UHGV virus genome: UHGV-0130052
Reading direction: 5' to 3' (one strand)
DNA length: 12,406 nt
DNA from: a virus
Part shown: one piece after another, positions 1,055 through 12,340 of the stretch
Layout of the letters: every line of letters starts with the position of its first letter
Position numbering within the stretch: the stretch's first letter is position 1
Notes under the pieces: generated by a model
Databases searched by the model: none
What the model was told of the DNA's origin: nothing
Seen by the model: the letters and a program-made list of their open reading frames with translations, nothing else
Program-made: the position numbers and the translations under genes

Positions 1055-1356
1055 TTTAACAATAGCAAAGTATCATTTATTTTTTATTGCGCGCAACATG
1101 CAAATTTTCACATATAATAGTTTACTATTCACTTTGTATGGTGTCAACAAGATGATGTGTTGTTTTGTTTGATTTGTTCAAGATAATGTTTCATTTTCTC
1201 ATCTATATAACTTGTGTTTTAGATAATTTCACTAATTGTAAAAGTTACGTATTGCTTAATAGCTACCTTTTTATCTGAAATCGGCGCAGACGTGATCAAT
1301 GTTTAACGCGAAGATCAGCGGCGTCAGGTCCACGCAGCGACAATTCTCAAATATCA

Positions 1357-1375
1357 AGGAGGCATTACGCCTCCT
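1357..1375 (-). terminator. Hairpin over the stop codon of the recombinase gene (possible terminator)
   Basis: AGGAGGC-ATTAC-GCCTCCT 7-bp GC-rich stem; downstream on the minus strand is UUGAUAUUUGA, only moderately U-rich. Confidence 0.25.
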
Positions 1376-1904: not shown

Positions 1905-1943
1905 AAAATCCTCTTAATGTGTCGATTTGGCACTACTTCAATG

Positions 1944-1979
1944 CAAATGAGTATACCGTATTCATTTGGTCTGTTTCAA
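1944..1979 (-). promoter_or_regulatory. Putative recombinase promoter (-35 TTGAAA, 18-bp spacer, -10 TATACT on minus strand) overlapping an imperfect dyad CAAATGAGTATAC-C-GTATTCATTTG (res site I candidate)
   Basis: Hexamers read directly on the minus strand at 1974-1979 and 1950-1955; the dyad spans 1944-1968 and overlaps the -10. Classic resolvase autoregulatory layout. Confidence 0.45.
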
Positions 1980-2026
1980 GCCTTATGGGTACGGAATATT
2001 ACACGATTTAGCTGTATTCATTTGGT
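1958..2026. repeat. Direct repeat GTATTCATTTGGT x2 (1958-1970, 2014-2026), candidate accessory resolvase subsites
   Basis: Exact 13-mer repeated 56 bp apart immediately upstream of the recombinase gene. Confidence 0.5.
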
Positions 2027-2047
2027 ATGCCTAATGGATACACAGGG

Positions 2048-2477
2048 GGATAGATTAAATGATGTTCTGTTTATACAGGTTTATTTGTTAGATCAACAAT
2101 TTGGCATTTCTAAACAGATGTTTGAACGTTGCCAAATGTCTTGACAACACAAGAAAAGGGCTTGCTATGCCACGCATTACACGAAATAAGGCTGTAAAAA
2201 CAAAATAAATTTTAAAATTTGCACAAACGAGAAAACTCGTTCAGAAACAAGCAGAACAATTTTTAGCCAACAATTTATGATGGTGCTTTGTAAGCCGCAT
2301 TACACAAGGCTTTGCGAAAGTGATGTAAAAGTGAAGAAAGTGAGAATTGCACTTTTAGCTACTTTTTCATTGAATTTTTAGTATGGAATTACACAGGGAA
2401 TAGAGAGCATTATTCTATGATTTACACAGGGAATATAGGGGGATTATGGCACACACATAGAAAGACATTACACAGAG
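2048..2477. repeat. Iteron-like family: TTACACAGGGAATA (2389-2402 and 2422-2435, exact), ATACACAGGGGGATAG (2048-2063), CGCATTACAC (2173-2182, 2296-2305), CATTACACAG (2466-2475)
   Basis: Exact and near-exact direct repeats seen in sequence; two perfect 14-mers are 33 bp apart. A degenerate copy ATTACATAAGGGAAT sits at ~3432-3446. Confidence 0.6.
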
Positions 2478-2520
2478 TGCTATGTGACAAATGGATGTAA
2501 CGGTAGGTCATAGTGAGCTA

Positions 2521-2609
2521 CCCCCACAGAATTCTGTTAATCTTAACTTTTAAAGAGATTTGTACCCTAACAAAATTCTGTTACCCCACCCCCACAGAAT
2601 TCTGTTACC
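2521..2609. repeat. Three ~20-bp iterons each containing a 12-bp palindrome: CCCCCACAGAATTCTGTTA (2521-2540, 2589-2608) and variant CCCTAACAAAATTCTGTTACCCC (2565-2587)
   Basis: ACAGAATTCTGT is a perfect palindrome; copies are direct repeats flanked by C-runs and are immediately followed by an AT-rich tract. Confidence 0.7.
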
Positions 2610-2670
2610 TATTAGATCATTTATTAAATTACTTATTAAATTATAATATTATATATTTATTTATATGATC
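2610..2670. other. AT-rich tract (almost pure A/T), candidate DNA-unwinding element of an origin
   Basis: TATTAGATCATTTATTAAATTACTTATTAAATTATAATATTATATATTTATTTATATGATC directly downstream of the palindromic iterons. Confidence 0.4.
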
Positions 2671-2840
2671 TTTTGCCTTCCGGCGTTAGCTTCACTCTCT
2701 GGCAAGCAGCCTTACTCCGCTACCTTTCGGGCTACGTTGGCTGGCCCGTTCCGCTCACACCGAAAGCAAAGCGTTACTTTCTTCGTGTAACTATCGTTGG
2801 CGGTAACGCCCACGAAGAAATACTATTGCGCTGTGCGCAG
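2671..2840. other. GC-rich, highly self-complementary island in an otherwise AT-rich non-coding region (candidate structured RNA or cis-acting DNA site; strand unknown)
   Basis: Perfect 10-bp stem TTTCTTCGTG (2778-2787) / CACGAAGAAA (2811-2820) enclosing a GGCG-GTAA-CGCC hairpin (2799-2810); CTTTCGG (2724-2730) / CCGAAAG (2760-2766); TGCGC-TGT-GCGCA hairpin (~2827-2839). The overlapping ORF 2673-2951 looks non-coding. Confidence 0.3.
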
Positions 2841-3476
2841 AAGAGTAATCACCTAACCAATCATACTGATTGCTTATGTGTTAACTCTATCTCTCTACTC
2901 TTAATTACCCTCCTACATTTAATAACTCTGTTATTCTCTGTAGTTGTGTAATTGTTTTCGGTGGAAAAGCCAGAGGCGACACCGAAAGAGAATTCTGATC
3001 TTATTAATCTTATCTATCTTAGTTAATCTTCTTACTTATCTTACTTACTTTATCTACTTTATTATTAATAATAGCTTTATAAGCTCTCTGCGTAGCTCTC
3101 TGACGCAAGAAACAGCATTCAGGAAGGGAATCACCTTAGAAAAGTGTTCTTTGCGTCATAATGTGTTTTATGAAGGATTCAGAGGTGTTTCATAACAGGA
3201 ATGTATAGAGGATACTTTAATTAATTAAAAATAAGGGGTCTAAATGCTTCTCTAACAGCATTAAGCAGGGTAGGGAATGGAAACGCATTGCCTACACATA
3301 TAAGCTCACTACAGGGCTTTACAGGGCGTTTTATAAAGTGACTCTCTATCTTATATCTACCATTACCTTTTCATATACCTAACAAATACAAAATAAGCCC
3401 CTTAAATAAGCCTCTGGCGAGCTAAACAGCCATTACATAAGGGAATGTATTGCTTTTATCAAAATCTCGTTATAAC

Positions 3477-3496
3477 GCGTTTTAGAGCGTTTTAGA
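3477..3496. repeat. Tandem direct repeat GCGTTTTAGA x2, candidate operator ~85 bp upstream of the 3581 promoter
   Basis: Exact 10-bp tandem duplication seen in sequence. Confidence 0.5.
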
Positions 3497-3580
3497 CAAT
3501 AATGAAGAATGGCACTACACAGAAGAGCACGAGTTGCTCGTAAGTGCATGAAAAAGATCGATTTTTTTCGGAAGGGGTAT

Positions 3581-3609
3581 TGACAAACGTCTCTTTCTGT
3601 GCAATAATA
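3581..3609 (+). promoter_or_regulatory. Sigma70-like promoter: -35 TTGACA (3581-3586), 17-bp spacer, -10 AATAAT (3604-3609), for the 3733-5986 operon
   Basis: Consensus -35 with optimal spacer; near-consensus -10; ~120 nt upstream of a gene with a strong AGGAGG ribosome-binding site. Confidence 0.5.
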
Positions 3610-3732
3610 GGAATTAGAGGGGACAGGAATAGATTCTTATCCTCTAAATAATTAAACCAATGCACCGCACTTTGAAGCCCAAGGCTTGCAAGGTGTTTTT
3701 TCTTTTAACCAAATAGAATAGGAGGTTAATTA

Positions 3733-3921
3733 GTGAAGTATTTCACTTCTCAAGATGTAGTTGAAGCCTGGAAACGTGGTGAGATCAACCGCTTTAAAGT
3801 AAGGATGTATAGAAACACCGCTCGCCGTTGTGGTTATCCAGAGCGTGAAAAATGTTTTGACGATGCACTGAAAATTATTGATGAACTGCGTAAAGCTGAG
3901 AAAGAAGCTGAGAAAGAATAA
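3733..3921 (+). CDS. Small hypothetical protein (62 aa), GTG start, charged C-terminal tail
   Basis: AGGAGG 7 nt upstream of GTG; first gene of the rightward operon. No family recognised. Confidence 0.55.
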   Translation: MKYFTSQDVVEAWKRGEINRFKVRMYRNTARRCGYPEREKCFDDALKIIDELRKAEKEAEKE

Positions 3922-3943: not shown

Positions 3944-4111
3944 ATGAGCGAAACTAAGAAACCAATTCCGCGCACTTACCTACACGTTGACCCTGAAATC
4001 TTCAAGGTTTTATTTGCTGAAGCCAAGAAAAGGCAAATTATGGTCAGTGATTTGATGTTAGAAATCATTACTGAAGCAGCAGAGAACATCAAACAAAAAA
4101 AGGGTAAGTGA
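3944..4111 (+). CDS. Putative ribbon-helix-helix (CopG/Arc-like) DNA-binding protein (55 aa)
   Basis: AGGAG 6 nt upstream of ATG 3944 (internal start of track ORF 3878-4111); N-terminal basic strand RTYLHV followed by two predicted helices, typical RHH layout. Judged by eye. Confidence 0.5.
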   Translation: MSETKKPIPRTYLHVDPEIFKVLFAEAKKRQIMVSDLMLEIITEAAENIKQKKGK

Positions 4112-4162: not shown

Positions 4163-4816
4163 ATGATTAATGAAGAACAATTTGTAAAAGTTCCTATGTG
4201 GATTCTAAAAATAAGCCAAGTAAACGGGCATAAATTTACAGATAGTGCTAAAAACCTTTACTGCTATCTGAAAGGGTTTGATCGTGCATTTCCCTCTTAC
4301 GCTAAGATAGGCGATGTTTTTGGCATAACACCAAGAGCAGCAGAGGAAAGGGTTAAGAAATTGCTCGAAATGGGATTAATTATAAAAGATGCACGACCAG
4401 GAAGTTCTAATGTCTATCAAGTGGTAGATATTCCACAAGAAGAAGCTAGACAAGAAGCCAAGACACAACAAGAAGCTACTGTTAAAGCTGTTCCTGATCA
4501 GCTTCCGCCTACGGAAGATAATAAACAGCCTTCTTTTGATGTTCTTGATGATTGGGATACGCCTTTACCGTGGGAGACGGAAGAAACACCTGTTTCATCA
4601 AGTGAAAAGGTAGCTAATGATAATGAGGAGGATGTGTTAGAAAATTTTGCCTCTCTTATTATCAAGCAGAAGAATACCAGAACAGCAGGGGCATCATTTA
4701 TAGAATTTGCAAATTCACTAGCTTATAGACACGGGCTAAAACGACCAAATGGTATTGAGGCATATTTTGCTAAGAAACATCCCAAAGTATACGAAGACTT
4801 TGATATTCCATTTTAA
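4163..4816 (+). CDS. Putative replication initiator/replisome-organiser-like protein: N-terminal winged-HTH, acidic C-terminal region (217 aa)
   Basis: AAGGAG Shine-Dalgarno; N-terminal segment (YAKIGDVFGITPRAAEERVKKLLEMGLI) has the look of phage/plasmid initiator wHTH domains; acidic DDWDTPLPWETEETP stretch. Function is inferred, not demonstrated. Confidence 0.45.
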   Translation: MINEEQFVKVPMWILKISQVNGHKFTDSAKNLYCYLKGFDRAFPSYAKIGDVFGITPRAAEERVKKLLEMGLIIKDARPGSSNVYQVVDIPQEEARQEAKTQQEATVKAVPDQLPPTEDNKQPSFDVLDDWDTPLPWETEETPVSSSEKVANDNEEDVLENFASLIIKQKNTRTAGASFIEFANSLAYRHGLKRPNGIEAYFAKKHPKVYEDFDIPF

Positions 4817-6015: not shown

Positions 6016-6044
6016 TTGACATTTCATCTATTGTATGTTAATAT
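6016..6044 (+). promoter_or_regulatory. Sigma70-like promoter: -35 TTGACA (6016-6021), 17-bp spacer, -10 TAATAT (6039-6044), upstream of the capsid-containing operon
   Basis: Consensus -35, optimal spacer, near-consensus -10; a second -10-like hexamer (AATTAT/TATATA) follows immediately. Confidence 0.55.
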
Positions 6045-6181
6045 AATTATATAGGGTGATTATTTTTCCTTTATTGGTTCGATATTAAAAATTCTTCTTG
6101 TCGTTAAAGGGGAGTAAAATCTCCGCTCCCCGCTTCTCCTCCTTAAGTAAATACTGTGTCATTATTACCTCTTTTTTCCTT

Positions 6182-8242: not shown

Positions 8243-10084
8243 ATGTTAGAAATTAACACTTCTAAAATTAAGAACACAGTAACATTTAGTGTAGATAAAG
8301 ACAGCTTGAAAAAAGCGAAAGACTCTATTACAGGCTTAAAGGAATTCGCAGAAAATATCAAGCCAGCTAAATTGAGATTTGATAATGTCACTAAAGGCTA
8401 TAAGAAAGCACAAAGTGAAGTAGACAAGATTACTCAACAGAAAGCTAAAACAGAAAAACAGAATCAAAGAGCACAAGCTGCCGCAGCAAGAGCACAGGCA
8501 AGGCAACAGGCACAAATAGCAGCACGTAAAGAGAAAGCAGAATTAAAACTTCTCGATGTGTCAAGCTCTATCAGTGCAATGCACCGCCTCTCTGTAGCGG
8601 AACAATACAAAGCTATTGCACAGGCTAGAGAGATAGCAAAACAATATGAGCAAGGGGCTATCTCGCTTGCACGTATGAATAGCCAGATGAAACGCCTACA
8701 ACAACAACAACGTAAGATTAATGGCAACAGAAAAACTCAATTAGCCCCCGTTAAGGGAGGATCAGGGAATTCCGCCACTATGGGCGCTCTGTTATTTGGA
8801 GGCGCTACGGCTGCTGCTGGCGTGATGGCTGTTAGCAAAGCGGCGGAGTTTGTTAGTAGCAGTTTCGCTAACGCAGAGACCCAAGGGGAGCTAATCCAAC
8901 GTGCCAAGCTGGGCGGTGTAGACGTTAACCAGATGTATAATATTACAGAATGGGCCTATAGACACGGGATCGATAGCCTCCAGGGAGATCAAGGGGCTAG
9001 GAAATACCTGGATCAGATGAAAGATGTTAGGGAACGTGCCGCAAAATCCTACAGTGAAGCTGAATTGGTGAAAGACAAGAAAACCGGAAAATCTGAATGG
9101 AAAGGCGGTGATAACGCTATTAATGAACTTCTAAACATCGGTGTTATTAACAAAAGCGACCTTAAAAAATTTGCTGATAATCCAGCCGGATTAATTTCTA
9201 AGGCTGTTAATGGAATGATGAAAAAAGGGTTTTCAGACTCCCAAATTGGACAACGTTTAGAAGACCTGGGCGATGATTTGATGCTTACATCAAAATATTG
9301 GCAACGTTCCGTTAAAGATGTACAAGAAAGTATTAATCAGCAAAAAGCCTCTGGAAAATGGCTAACAGAAACACAGCAAGAATCTATTGTTAAATTCAGA
9401 GAACTAAACAGACAGCTTTCACAGCTTTCTGATGCAAGACAAGTAGCATTTGTAGACGGCTTTATGAAATCTCTCGATCCAAAAGTAACGGAAGAGTTTA
9501 TGAAAAACCTTTCTAATCTCACTCCGTATTTTACGAAGCTGGGTGAAGCCGCAGGAAGTCTTTTTGACGCCATTATGAAGATTGTAAACTGGTTTAATCG
9601 TAATGATGATAAGACAGATGCTATTCAGAAAAATATGGGTGATGCACCGCCACTATCTAACGATGGAATGAAACAGAATCTTTCTAACCTCGTTCCTGAT
9701 AAATATAAAGGCGCTGGCACTGCAACAACTACACCTGATAATAGTCATTCCCTCTTTAACACAATTAAGGGATTGCTTTTCGATGATAAGTCTTCTGTGT
9801 CAGATGTAAAAATGTCAGTCAGCGAAGCACCGATAACCAATCTCAAACAGGGTGCTTTAAATAATCTTGCAATGACAACTCCGGCTTATAATTTATCTCC
9901 TGTGTTTAATCTGAATCCTACATTTGAAGTGGTAACAGAGGTTCCGCTTACTATTAATTCTGACACATCCAGATTAAGCGATTATGTGGATTTTACAGCG
10001 AGAGCAAGTCGGGATAGCTTCTTGAAATCATTAACATTAACCAGCTTGTCAGGACAATCCAACGGCGGGGAATTCCCGCCATAA
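8243..10084 (+). CDS. Large hypothetical protein (613 aa): N-terminal coiled-coil-like region rich in Q/A/K/R, Gly/Ala-rich hydrophobic segment, large C-terminal domain; tape-measure-like or scaffold-like
   Basis: AAGGGGA 6 nt upstream of ATG; residues ~60-170 are helical and low complexity (QRAQAAAARAQARQQAQIAARKEKAELKLL); hydrophobic TMGALLFGGATAAAGVMAV; no catalytic motif recognised. Confidence 0.6.
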   Translation: MLEINTSKIKNTVTFSVDKDSLKKAKDSITGLKEFAENIKPAKLRFDNVTKGYKKAQSEVDKITQQKAKTEKQNQRAQAAAARAQARQQAQIAARKEKAELKLLDVSSSISAMHRLSVAEQYKAIAQAREIAKQYEQGAISLARMNSQMKRLQQQQRKINGNRKTQLAPVKGGSGNSATMGALLFGGATAAAGVMAVSKAAEFVSSSFANAETQGELIQRAKLGGVDVNQMYNITEWAYRHGIDSLQGDQGARKYLDQMKDVRERAAKSYSEAELVKDKKTGKSEWKGGDNAINELLNIGVINKSDLKKFADNPAGLISKAVNGMMKKGFSDSQIGQRLEDLGDDLMLTSKYWQRSVKDVQESINQQKASGKWLTETQQESIVKFRELNRQLSQLSDARQVAFVDGFMKSLDPKVTEEFMKNLSNLTPYFTKLGEAAGSLFDAIMKIVNWFNRNDDKTDAIQKNMGDAPPLSNDGMKQNLSNLVPDKYKGAGTATTTPDNSHSLFNTIKGLLFDDKSSVSDVKMSVSEAPITNLKQGALNNLAMTTPAYNLSPVFNLNPTFEVVTEVPLTINSDTSRLSDYVDFTARASRDSFLKSLTLTSLSGQSNGGEFPP

Positions 10085-10819: not shown

Positions 10820-10860
10820 CCGTAAATGCCTCTAAAACGCTCTGTAACGATGTAATTATA

Positions 10861-10900: not shown

Positions 10901-12265
10901 CTATGGTGTTGTTTTACGCCTTAAATTTGATTTTTTATTGATTGATAAGCCTTTCTCTATTTCAGGGTAGCGTAGAAGCTCAATATATTTTTTAAGCTCT
11001 ACTGGAGAAGCTGCATTCTTGCTATATGTGCGGAATGTCTCTGTATTGCCGCGTGTATGGCCCAGGAGAAGGGCGATCCTGTCTTCTGGAATTTGATTTC
11101 GATCAAGAAGCTGTGCTACTCCGTGTCTCAGAGAATGAAACACCTTCCTTTCTGTTCCCTTTTCCCCTAAAGCCTTTCGTTTAGCTCTTGTAAATCTCTG
11201 CGTGTGCCACGTAGAGCGTTTACCATCTACACGCTCTGTAATGCTGGCGTGATAGAACAAAAAGCCATTATGAGGCTTTTCACGCAGCGACAACACCAAC
11301 GGAGTGATAAGGCTGTGTACAGGCACAACACGTGCCGCAGCTTTCGTTTTTCCCTGTGTGATTTCAAAACACAGCACACCTTCGATCTCTTTCACATCGT
11401 CTATTGTGAGACTTGCTATCTCATTGATCCGCATACCTGTATATAAACCGATAAGACACAAAGCCATCATTTCTTTGTTTTCTGCTGAATTACCGGAAAA
11501 TACTTGCAACACCTGCAATAGCTCTTTGTTAGAAAATGCCTCGTAGCTCTCTCTACTTTGTGCCACATCAAGCCTATGCCCTCGCCAGGGGGAGAGCGCC
11601 CTTTCTGGCGCATCGTGGTAACGTGATGAAGCTAACTCCCATAGCTGGGCCATTGGGCTGATATAATTTGCAATTGATTGTTGTGAAAGGGTTTTTTGCA
11701 TGTGTTCAATCCAGCCTGTAACAGTGGTGCGGCTTACATCTTGCAATGCAATATCAGGCTTTTTACGGTAGGAGAGAAACATCTCTACCGCTTTTCTTGC
11801 CTTAGCTAAAGTGGCTGGCTTCTTCTTCGTGCTGTTAATTGTCAGGTAGATTTCAAGAATTTTAAGCAATGACGGACACGAAGACGCTGTATCTTGCATT
11901 CTGGTAGCTGTTTTGGCGTATTTAGCCTTACTGCGTAACAGCTCCAGCGTGTTCTCTATTGTGCTGTTTACAGGGGCGACACTCTCCCGTAGACAATGGT
12001 ATTCATCTGCAATCTGATCACGCTTTCTACGTGCAACACGAAGATTACTTGTGTGCAGACTCCTGACAAACGTCCTTTTTCCTTCAAAAAAGGGCTGCAT
12101 ATACACAGGCAACGTGATCCTCAAATAGTAGTTACCGTAAGAATCACAGATTATGTATTGATTGGGCTTGTATCTCATAAACTCCCCGGCTAAAGTGTCG
12201 GAGCGTTTGTAATGTGAAAATTGATTGTGACGCATAGAAAATGATGATTTTTCTATAAGATTCAA
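10901..12265 (-). CDS. int: Tyrosine site-specific integrase (454 aa)
   Basis: C-terminal catalytic-domain motifs HSLRHGVAQLL and LLGHTRGNTETFRTY (His/Arg/Tyr signature); start lies ~55 bp from the right-hand att repeat and the gene reads away from it. The ribosome-binding site is weak, so the exact start is uncertain. Confidence 0.9.
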   Translation of the reverse strand: MNLIEKSSFSMRHNQFSHYKRSDTLAGEFMRYKPNQYIICDSYGNYYLRITLPVYMQPFFEGKRTFVRSLHTSNLRVARRKRDQIADEYHCLRESVAPVNSTIENTLELLRSKAKYAKTATRMQDTASSCPSLLKILEIYLTINSTKKKPATLAKARKAVEMFLSYRKKPDIALQDVSRTTVTGWIEHMQKTLSQQSIANYISPMAQLWELASSRYHDAPERALSPWRGHRLDVAQSRESYEAFSNKELLQVLQVFSGNSAENKEMMALCLIGLYTGMRINEIASLTIDDVKEIEGVLCFEITQGKTKAAARVVPVHSLITPLVLSLREKPHNGFLFYHASITERVDGKRSTWHTQRFTRAKRKALGEKGTERKVFHSLRHGVAQLLDRNQIPEDRIALLLGHTRGNTETFRTYSKNAASPVELKKYIELLRYPEIEKGLSINKKSNLRRKTTP

Positions 12266-12320: not shown

Positions 12321-12340
12321 ACTCCTATTATCGGCACCAT
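12321..12340. repeat. attR core: second copy of the 20-bp direct repeat (duplicated tRNA 3' end)
   Basis: ACTCCTATTATCGGCACCAT identical to 36-55; not preceded by the rest of a tRNA, so it is a partial tRNA copy marking the element boundary. Confidence 0.8.

Follow-up and report, generated by a model that had tools for sequence, protein, structure and literature searches.

Several kinds of short repeat arrays are known from the replication and packaging regions of mobile elements. In the origins of lambda (ori/O), of SaPI and PICI islands (ori) and of P4 (ori/crr), Rep proteins bind iterons, short non-coding direct repeats that stand by an A+T-rich stretch and near the gene of an O-like initiator. 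Iteron origins may be accompanied by auxiliary cis elements such as DnaA, IHF and Fis sites or the gyrase-binding par locus of pSC101. Phage termini have their own arrays, including the short repeats SRL and SRR that flank the T7 terminal repeat and the sites of terminase small subunits, R1-R3 of lambda cosB and the pac boxes of SPP1. Small phage regulators also act on head-to-tail repeats, as at the P2 Cox boxes and the X1-X2 sites of lambda Xis. Here we describe a family of TTACAC repeats in the UHGV virus genome UHGV-0130052, where a stretch of 12,406 nucleotides (hereafter the window) was analyzed. The window holds an integrated island which, from its gene content and homology, appears to be a satellite-like element of the Stephanstirmvirinae, virulent phages related to phi92. 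We favor, as a possible though not yet probable explanation, that the TTACAC copies are binding sites for an Escherichia-clade-specific factor other than the initiator, located in a control block near both the origin and a terminus-like segment. The feature itself is a modest variant of origin-proximal repeat arrays, and its context, a widespread and apparently undescribed family of satellite-like elements, is the more interesting part.

The family is centered on two exact 14-mers, TTACACAGGGAATA, which start 33 bp apart, as the first-pass annotation of this DNA had reported. The copies, together with the conserved block to which the best of them belong, are the following:

2038-2052, plus strand: degenerate copy ATACACAGGGGGATA, found only in one Escherichia subgroup (subgroup 1), whose conserved non-coding module has it at the left edge
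2173-2186, plus strand: copy CGCATTACACGAAA, in subgroup 1 only
2215-2402, no strand: block A, about 190 bp of non-coding DNA, in all Escherichia relatives
2292-2312, plus strand: AAGCC/GGCTT hairpin-like inverted repeat, whose 11-nt loop holds a CATTACAC copy (2296-2309, CGCATTACACAAGG)
2389-2402, plus strand: first exact 14-mer TTACACAGGGAATA, with core GGAATTACAYARGGA, marking the right end of the universal core
2422-2435, plus strand: second exact 14-mer TTACACAGGGAATA, with core TTTACACAGG, in a diverged 33-bp tandem duplication
2466-2477, plus strand: copy CATTACACAGAG, which is CATTGCACAGAT in the other subgroup
3431-3446, plus strand: CATTACATAAGGGAAT, located in block B and some 150 bp upstream of the early promoter, with ATAAGGGAATGTATTG conserved and TTACA variable

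The 14-mer pair is real and improbable by chance: when the window was simulated 1000 times with a first-order Markov model, an exact direct repeat of at least 14 nt within 100 bp appeared in 4 runs. The family around the pair is also real, although loosely defined. Exact copies of CGCATTACAC are present at 2173-2182 and 2296-2305, and CATTACAC has a third plus-strand copy at 2466-2473, which together with one minus-strand copy makes four occurrences against 0.34 expected. The hexamer TTACAC is found six times on the plus strand within 475 bp (1999-2473); such a cluster was never reached for that hexamer in 1000 simulations, and it was reached for some hexamer in 9 of 200 (4.5%), so that the cluster is marginal once this look-elsewhere effect is counted. 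The first-pass annotation had also listed at least four degenerate copies of the 14-mer. Degenerate copies do exist, all on the plus strand, but the part they share is only a core of 6-11 nt (ATTACAYARGG), and no further copy with three or fewer mismatches to the 14-mer lies inside 2048-2477. With up to one mismatch this core, a pattern chosen after looking, matches ten times against 0.9 expected, five of the matches being on the plus strand (2299, 2388, 2421, 2467 and 3432). The outlying copy proposed near 3432-3446 is likewise present, at 3431-3446 in a conserved block, but its TTACA part varies in relatives. The successive spacings of 123, 89, 33 and 46 bp are irregular and without helical phasing, so calling the family "too regular" for chance was an overstatement. 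Its description as a second repeat family, distinct from the palindromic iterons nearby and lying in non-coding DNA, is borne out, and no coding feature explains it, the region being non-coding with no conserved open reading frame (ORF).

To follow these copies through the island family we used seven annotated E. coli loci and about 70 loci from IMG/VR and metagenome scans that carry an 18-mer of the block, altogether 58-64 distinct sequences. Among the hits of the 18-mer probe, IMG/VR contigs of about 9-13 kb were rejected as unrelated chance matches, and a contig scan based on the capsid gene gave one close relative only, distant relatives being reached through homologues of a 136-aa protein. 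Two non-coding blocks are common to all Escherichia relatives: block A (about 2215-2402) and block B with the promoter and leader (about 3400-3710). Block A is the most conserved non-coding block of the island family. Its core (2259-2402) is 88-93% identical in most of the divergent relatives, whose capsid and tape-measure genes are only about 70% identical, and still about 79-85% identical in the most distant ones. The right end of the core coincides exactly with the first 14-mer. Nearly all of the roughly 60 distinct Escherichia relatives have the copies at 2300 (CATTACACAAGG) and 2389 (GGAATTACAYARGGA). Of 64 distinct relatives, about 36 have the core of the second 14-mer at 2422 (TTTACACAGG) and about 30 the entire 14-mer; this copy is invariant wherever it is present. 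The copy at 2468 reads CATTGCACAGAT in the other subgroup, and those at 2177 and 2038 are limited to one subgroup. In block B the relatives keep ATAAGGGAATGTATTG while the TTACA part appears as CATTACAT, CTCTACAT or CATTAGAT.

The island family extends beyond Escherichia to Klebsiella, Enterobacter and Raoultella. In Klebsiella and Enterobacter the islands have the same gene order and a non-coding stretch of 1.56 kb, in which the skeleton of block A is partly kept (AAACTCGTTCA, AGCC-N10-GGCTTT and AAAGTGAGAA). ATTACAYARGG was found in none of the Klebsiella and Enterobacter relatives examined. The loop of the hairpin-like repeat reads CATTACACA in E. coli and CACGGCGCA in Enterobacter, where GCACGGCGCA replaces the loop and the arms are kept. 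The Klebsiella island has a pair of its own at the position of the 14-mer pair, TTATTGCATGAAT(A/T)A, 57 nt apart. The repeats would have been discredited had homologous elements failed to conserve them; what we observe is mixed, with the best copies conserved within Escherichia but the motif absent from the Klebsiella and Enterobacter relatives. In one relative (L148, 15-207, equivalent to 2292-2312 of the window) the AAGCC/GGCTT loop is inverted, GTGTGTAATGC instead of GCATTACACAA, which is an event of the template-switch type at a quasi-palindrome.

Several observations speak for protein sites, among them the improbable exact pair with an enriched, one-stranded family consensus around it; a block core kept at 88-93% where the capsid gene is at about 70%; and the absence of the motif from Klebsiella and Enterobacter relatives that keep the skeleton of the block. 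Other observations weigh on the opposite side. Conservation of block A is about equal throughout and does not sharpen over the motif copies, hence the functional units may be something other than the repeats. No more than two or three copies are kept throughout the family, the second 14-mer is present in about half of the relatives, the spacings show no helical phasing, and what relatives have at the block-B copy matches the word only loosely. These points lead to a rather unlikely account, in which the 14-mer pair is left over from a 33-bp tandem duplication and the CATTACAC copies are chance occurrences or hitch-hikers in a block conserved for another reason (bent DNA, the site of another factor or a recombination linker). 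The 14-mers do lie in a recognizable, diverged 33-bp duplication whose second copy is subgroup-specific, the hexamer cluster is marginal after correction, and block A, uniformly conserved as it is, borders a variable cargo slot and contains, shortly ahead of the first 14-mer, phased T-tracts (2353, 2363 and 2375) that indicate intrinsic bending. Within the duplicated unit, however, the flanks have diverged and the 14-mer has not: 18 of 20 positions around the motif agree, compared with roughly half elsewhere, although by hand calculation such a motif-centered skew has a chance of about 0.1 when all positions of the window are allowed. Copy 2 is invariant where present, and the same core occurs five times on one strand and again in block B; both points count against a relic.

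The TTACAC copies can be compared with Rep-binding iterons, being like them short direct repeats of non-coding DNA near an A+T-rich stretch and the gene of an O-like initiator, and the first-pass annotation had named initiator sites among its candidates. The origin region of the island consists of the following:

2520-2607, no strand: three palindromic iterons ACCCCCACAGAATTCTGTTA (2520, 2564 and 2588), which co-vary with the type of the Rep N-terminal domain
2608-2671, no strand: A+T-rich stretch with flanking GATC sites, probably the unwinding region of the origin as judged from its sequence
4163-4816, plus strand: Rep, an O-like winged-helix initiator (phrog_270, phrog_391)

We typed the N-terminal domain of Rep at each locus and listed the most repeated 10-mers to the right of block A. 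Relatives with the Rep N-domain of the window (at least 91% identical) have iterons of the ACCCCCACAG/ACCCCCACAGAATTCTGTTA type with one exception (L064), whereas those with another or no homologous Rep have other iterons (ACCCCTATCAA, GGTAGGTCAC, CGTTACAT, TAGGAAATGA, CTACCCCCTA and TATACGCTCA). The TTACAYARGGA word is present in nearly all loci whatever the type of Rep or iteron, and block A always lies directly left of the iteron array. Since the iterons follow the Rep N-domain and the TTACAC word stays constant, it is the palindromic iterons that Rep probably binds in the origin; the TTACAC family is not among its sites, contrary to the assignment of this family to the initiator. We also note that the C-terminal domain of Rep is exchanged independently, and that the co-variation of N-domain (4163-4516) and iterons holds despite a separation of about 1.6 kb. 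The TTACAC copies could still be secondary Rep sites, like P4 crr or a handcuffing array, as they are direct repeats near an origin and Rep is an O-like winged-helix protein. We consider this very improbable, and the co-variation largely refutes it, because at least six Rep/iteron types share the repeats unchanged, even where a homologue of this Rep is not detectable. In this they differ from the iterons of lambda, SaPI, PICI and P4, as they also do in being few, degenerate and irregularly spaced; the palindromic iterons separate them from the A+T-rich stretch, 85-350 bp to their right.

Farther right, the stretch 2680-3000 is richer in G+C, contains several hairpins (e.g., 2778-2820; GCGCTGTGCGC at 2826-2836) and has minus-strand ATTACAC copies at 2785 and 2946. 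Its TGCGCTGTGCGC is kept in the other Escherichia subgroup and in a Klebsiella relative, and the stretch is possibly a single-strand initiation site.

Two other candidates of the first-pass annotation, accessory recombinase sites and a partition-like centromere, are not supported either. The TTACAC copies are close to a gene for a serine recombinase (DNA invertase homologue) at 1365-1904 on the minus strand, and this proximity speaks for the former. The recombinase is nevertheless missing from at least nine relatives that keep the repeats (L021, L029, L034, L064, L065, L066, L102, L136 and L155); other DNA fills 811-2032 there, and similarity to the window resumes at 2032-2035, repeats included. 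The segment 811-2032 is a variable cargo slot, which holds the serine recombinase here and, in relatives, a 63% identical recombinase, none, or adjoining GmrSD/HNH/HTH genes, while Klebsiella and Enterobacter islands have a small tyrosine-recombinase-like gene at this position. The serine recombinase is thus dispensable cargo, as far as gene presence and absence tell. Directly upstream of its gene, GTATTCATTTGGT(C/A)TG occurs at 1958-1973 and 2014-2029, 56 bp apart, and overlaps the predicted recombinase promoter (1979-1950, minus strand); this pair is a candidate for recombinase sites that travel with the recombinase module. Arm or excisionase sites of the tyrosine integrase were ruled out by a relative inserted at a tRNA-Gly site (L001), which has an integrase only 32% identical and the same repeat copies, and by the distance of about 2.2 kb between the TTACAC repeats and the att sites. 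As to a centromere, no ParA/ParB-like protein was found among the 16 ORFs scanned with Pfam and PHROGs, and the element is integrated. Any of these three roles is therefore hardly credible. Throughout the family, block A stays constant while the replication module, the cargo and the integrase change around it. As the repeats depend on none of Rep, recombinase and integrase, the obvious island proteins drop out as binders, and gel-shift work on the TTACAC copies should accordingly not begin with Rep, whose sites are the palindromic iterons, or with the recombinase.

We also considered other identities for block A. A structured RNA was rejected, as RNAalifold gave -5.4 kcal/mol for 58 sequences with a double change of any kind in 3 of 23 pairs, and Rfam has no match in the repeat region. 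A small ORF at 2277-2378 (33 codons) was discarded, since it ends after 8 to more than 41 codons in relatives and its frame is not preserved; block A shows indels as well as substitutions at all codon positions. A sigma-70 promoter was likewise rejected, none being called within 2040-2480 on either strand. With no structured RNA, conserved ORF or sigma-70 promoter, a site at the level of DNA remains.

Such a site might serve a conserved host factor (DnaA, IHF, Fis or similar) that helps to open the origin, and in some respects block A does resemble the auxiliary elements of iteron origins such as pSC101 par: it is a conserved, initiator-independent block beside the iteron array and the A+T-rich stretch, with phased T-tracts and a possible Fis site. 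By reading of the sequence, ATTTACACA is one mismatch from the DnaA box TTWTNCACA, and a match to the Fis consensus at 2254-2268 still fits in three sequence variants. The Fis pattern is, however, expected about 0.7 times by chance (an estimate) and so has no statistical weight, and no exact consensus for DnaA (TTWTNCACA), IHF (WATCAR-N4-TTR) or CRP is found in 1905-3732. The block thus differs from the auxiliary elements in having no recognizable host-factor boxes, and its motif is genus-specific, unlike what is expected of a host-factor site. The loss of the motif in Klebsiella and Enterobacter, where the host factors are nearly identical, argues in the same direction, and we regard a host factor as quite improbable.

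Alternatively, the repeats could be helper-dependent promoter or start elements placed after -10-like hexamers, from which rightward transcripts would activate the origin. TATGAT stands immediately before copy 2 and TAGTAT 4 nt before copy 1, and ATATAGGGGGATTAT (2433-2447) matches the start region of a promoter at about 6016-6045 at 14 of 15 positions, a marginal similarity that was equalled in 7 of 300 shuffles. This is very unlikely in our judgment, given that no sigma-70 promoter is called, that TAGTAT is TACGTA in 12 relatives, that 98 of 300 shuffles equalled the similarity to the leader of the 3580 promoter, which is thus not significant, and that no over-represented motif of the phi92-like phage muut is found in block A.

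What we observe is the repeats themselves, how they are conserved and that they do not depend on Rep, recombinase or integrase; that a protein binds here, its identity and the effect of its binding are proposals. In the explanation we favor, the TTACAC(A)GGGAATA/CATTACAC copies would be sequence-specific protein sites in a cis-acting block A, with subgroup extensions to about 2480, and this block would sit between a segment resembling the helper terminus and the swappable origin module of the satellite. The binder would not be Rep; it would be a factor common to all Escherichia members and different in the Klebsiella and Enterobacter members. Such a distribution by genus points to a protein encoded by the satellite or its helper and not to a conserved host protein. 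The only satellite protein with a fitting distribution is the product of the first early gene, which would make it the candidate binder. The head-to-tail sites near the origin and the related site about 150 bp upstream of the early promoter could then build up a nucleoprotein complex, which after helper infection would set how active the origin and the early-promoter region are. A block that remains constant amid exchanged modules is where one would first look for the sensing of the helper and for a coupling of replication to packaging.

The early region into which this candidate falls begins with two further conserved features:

3580-3608, plus strand: strong sigma-70-type promoter TTGACA-17-AATAAT (11 of 12 matches, TG present), conserved in relatives
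3614-3706, plus strand: leader that folds into two hairpins (-26.2 kcal/mol, z -2.8), of which the second is terminator-like with a U run after it; conserved

The leader precedes the first early gene (3733-3921), and by analogy the layout of promoter and leader, which recalls lambda pR'/tR', suggests induction by antitermination. The first early gene is the sole island gene found in every relative with enough flank. Its product is a small, basic protein of 62 aa with a C-terminal half that is invariant within Escherichia; sequence searches matched Escherichia only, and homologues 32-36% identical occupy the same position in Klebsiella and Enterobacter. The AlphaFold model is a confident three-helix bundle (pLDDT 86.5). 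Two results count against this protein as the binder: a Foldseek search of the PDB returned nothing with E <1, DNA-binding fold or other, and the two N-terminal allele types of the product each occur with each allele type of block A. It is a weak candidate, although the only one identified. The likeness to P2 Cox and lambda Xis lies in several direct copies of 9-14 nt, in a first early gene whose product is small, basic and helical, and in a related copy upstream of that gene's promoter. The difference is that our candidate has no detectable Cox, Xis or helix-turn-helix (HTH) fold, and that 1.1-1.3 kb separate the sites from the promoter and 2.2 kb from att. A 55-aa protein from the next gene (3944-4111), called ribbon-helix-helix-like by reading of its sequence, was rejected as binder, as its gene is absent from relatives that keep block A and muut, which encodes an identical protein (gp095), has no TTACAC sites.

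The relation to muut and other phi92-like phages raises a further explanation, that of packaging. The window begins with the 3' part of a tRNA gene (Rfam tRNA match 1-51), which we take to be thrW of E. coli. The last 18 nt of the tRNA are repeated at 38-55 and 12322-12339 as att repeats, and a tyrosine integrase gene (10901-12265, minus strand) adjoins the right one, so that the window represents a complete integrated island of about 12.3 kb. A small left arm is followed by the serine recombinase gene, and a gene-free stretch of 1.83 kb (1905-3732) separates the latter from the early operon, which encodes the 62-aa protein, the 55-aa ribbon-helix-helix-like protein and the O-like winged-helix initiator, with several small orphan genes after them. 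Then come a major capsid protein (PF03864, 6909-7937), a tape-measure homologue (phrog_16051, 8243-10084; 30-53% identical to muut gp017) and a Dit-like protein (PF21821, 10106-10819; 62% identical to muut gp018). The 55-aa protein is 100% identical in amino acids to muut gp095, and the segment 3932-4170 with this gene and its ribosome-binding region is 99.6% identical in nucleotides, indicating a recent exchange with a virulent phage. No terminase or portal was detected among the island proteins in Pfam and PHROGs scans of the 16 ORFs. An island with neither needs a packaging signal in cis.

The termini of phi92-type phages are direct terminal repeats (DTRs) of about 340-415 bp, that of BME3 being 342 bp (PMC12210895). 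The phi92 record has an annotated left terminal repeat, and in the phage the DTR is followed by direct repeats of its own, CAACAAATAGG. Two segments of the window resemble this terminus:

1300-1361, plus strand: degenerate copy of positions 69-131 (approximately) of the phi92-type DTR, a better candidate for a packaging signal than the TTACAC array
2089-2138, plus strand: segment weakly like the second half of the phi92-type DTR (TTGGCA, TCTAAACA and TGCCAAATG, an inverted repeat)

The TTACAC repeats could accordingly belong to a terminus mimic of the satellite and help the terminase of the helper, or of an adaptor, to recognize or process concatemers. We hold this main rival of the favored explanation to be doubtful, though attractive for its position and the lack of a terminase. 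On its side are the missing terminase and portal and the clear DTR similarity elsewhere in the family: the left part of the Klebsiella and Enterobacter non-coding stretch aligns with the whole phage DTR (0 of 200 shuffles), and 23 of 61 Escherichia relatives carry an exact 29-mer of it (GGTGCTTAACGCGATTTTCAGCGCCCCCC), 587-1037 nt left of block A. The TTACAC copies begin just downstream of the DTR-like 2089-2138, where the phage has its CAACAAATAGG repeats, and a genus-specific motif would suit a genus-specific terminase. Being one-stranded direct repeats just inside a DTR-like segment, in an element that borrows a terminase, they are also like T7 SRL/SRR, cosB and the SPP1 pac boxes. The TTACAC word is, by contrast with these, absent from what we examined of candidate helpers, namely the complete muut genome, the BME3 DTR with its flanks and the terminal region of the Phapecoctavirus phiWec188. 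The similarity of the window itself is weak as well: 2089-2138 matches the second half of the DTR (about 230-285) at 74% over 50 nt (E 0.023), and a local alignment of 2075-2294 to the DTR region was equalled by 4 of 200 shuffles. Finally, the strong DTR mimic is elsewhere, about 590-1040 nt to the left, and optional, missing from most relatives that keep block A. One CAACAAATAGG unit is found in the block A consensus, none in the window and three in a Klebsiella relative. The DTR mimics in the islands, which lie at 1188-1266 in L126, 2327-2423 in L066, 4290-4770 in L180 and 4363-4706 in L182, are likely packaging signals on the basis of this similarity.

The DTR-like segments of the window form part of three colinear patches of similarity to muut, 1300-1361, 2101-2138 and 3223-3244 against 64295-64373, 64486-64523 and 65592-65613. 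The second patch is 76% identical over 38 nt and the third has an E-value of 9e-5; by hand arithmetic the two are spaced 1122 bp in the window and 1106 bp in muut. Colinear patches with nearly equal spacing suggest that the whole stretch derives from or imitates the helper terminus. Pursued to its end, this would make the 1.8-kb stretch a diverged functional copy of the terminus (DTR, post-DTR repeats and origin), the TTACAC array being private post-DTR repeats read by a satellite adaptor, for instance the 62-aa product, that redirects the DTR-type terminase of a 146-kb virulent myophage onto a 12-kb island. We think this unlikely; if true, a packaging-hijack signal would be described for the first time in a satellite of a DTR-packaging virulent coliphage.

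Searches for the repeats among phages gave little. K-mers shared with or over-represented in the muut genome included nothing relevant in block A, and neither the TTACAC word nor the palindromic iterons were found around the Rep-like gene of phage Mt1B1_P17. When the non-coding stretch was compared by blastn with 50,697 phage records, the only hit, not a relevant one, was 46 nt (E 1e-3) of an unrelated Klebsiella phage near 3452-3497, outside the repeat region. Homologues of the non-coding stretch are present in 725 of 5,426 complete E. coli genomes, and we found no description of the island family in the searchable literature. Two minor observations concern the surroundings of block B and the right end of the island. 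AGGGCGTTTTATA (3323-3335) matches 13 nt just outside the end of the BME3 DTR. GCGTTTTAGA is tandemly repeated in block B (3477-3496), and an inverted copy, GAGCGTTTTAGAGG on the minus strand, lies at 10826-10845 between the Dit-like and integrase genes.

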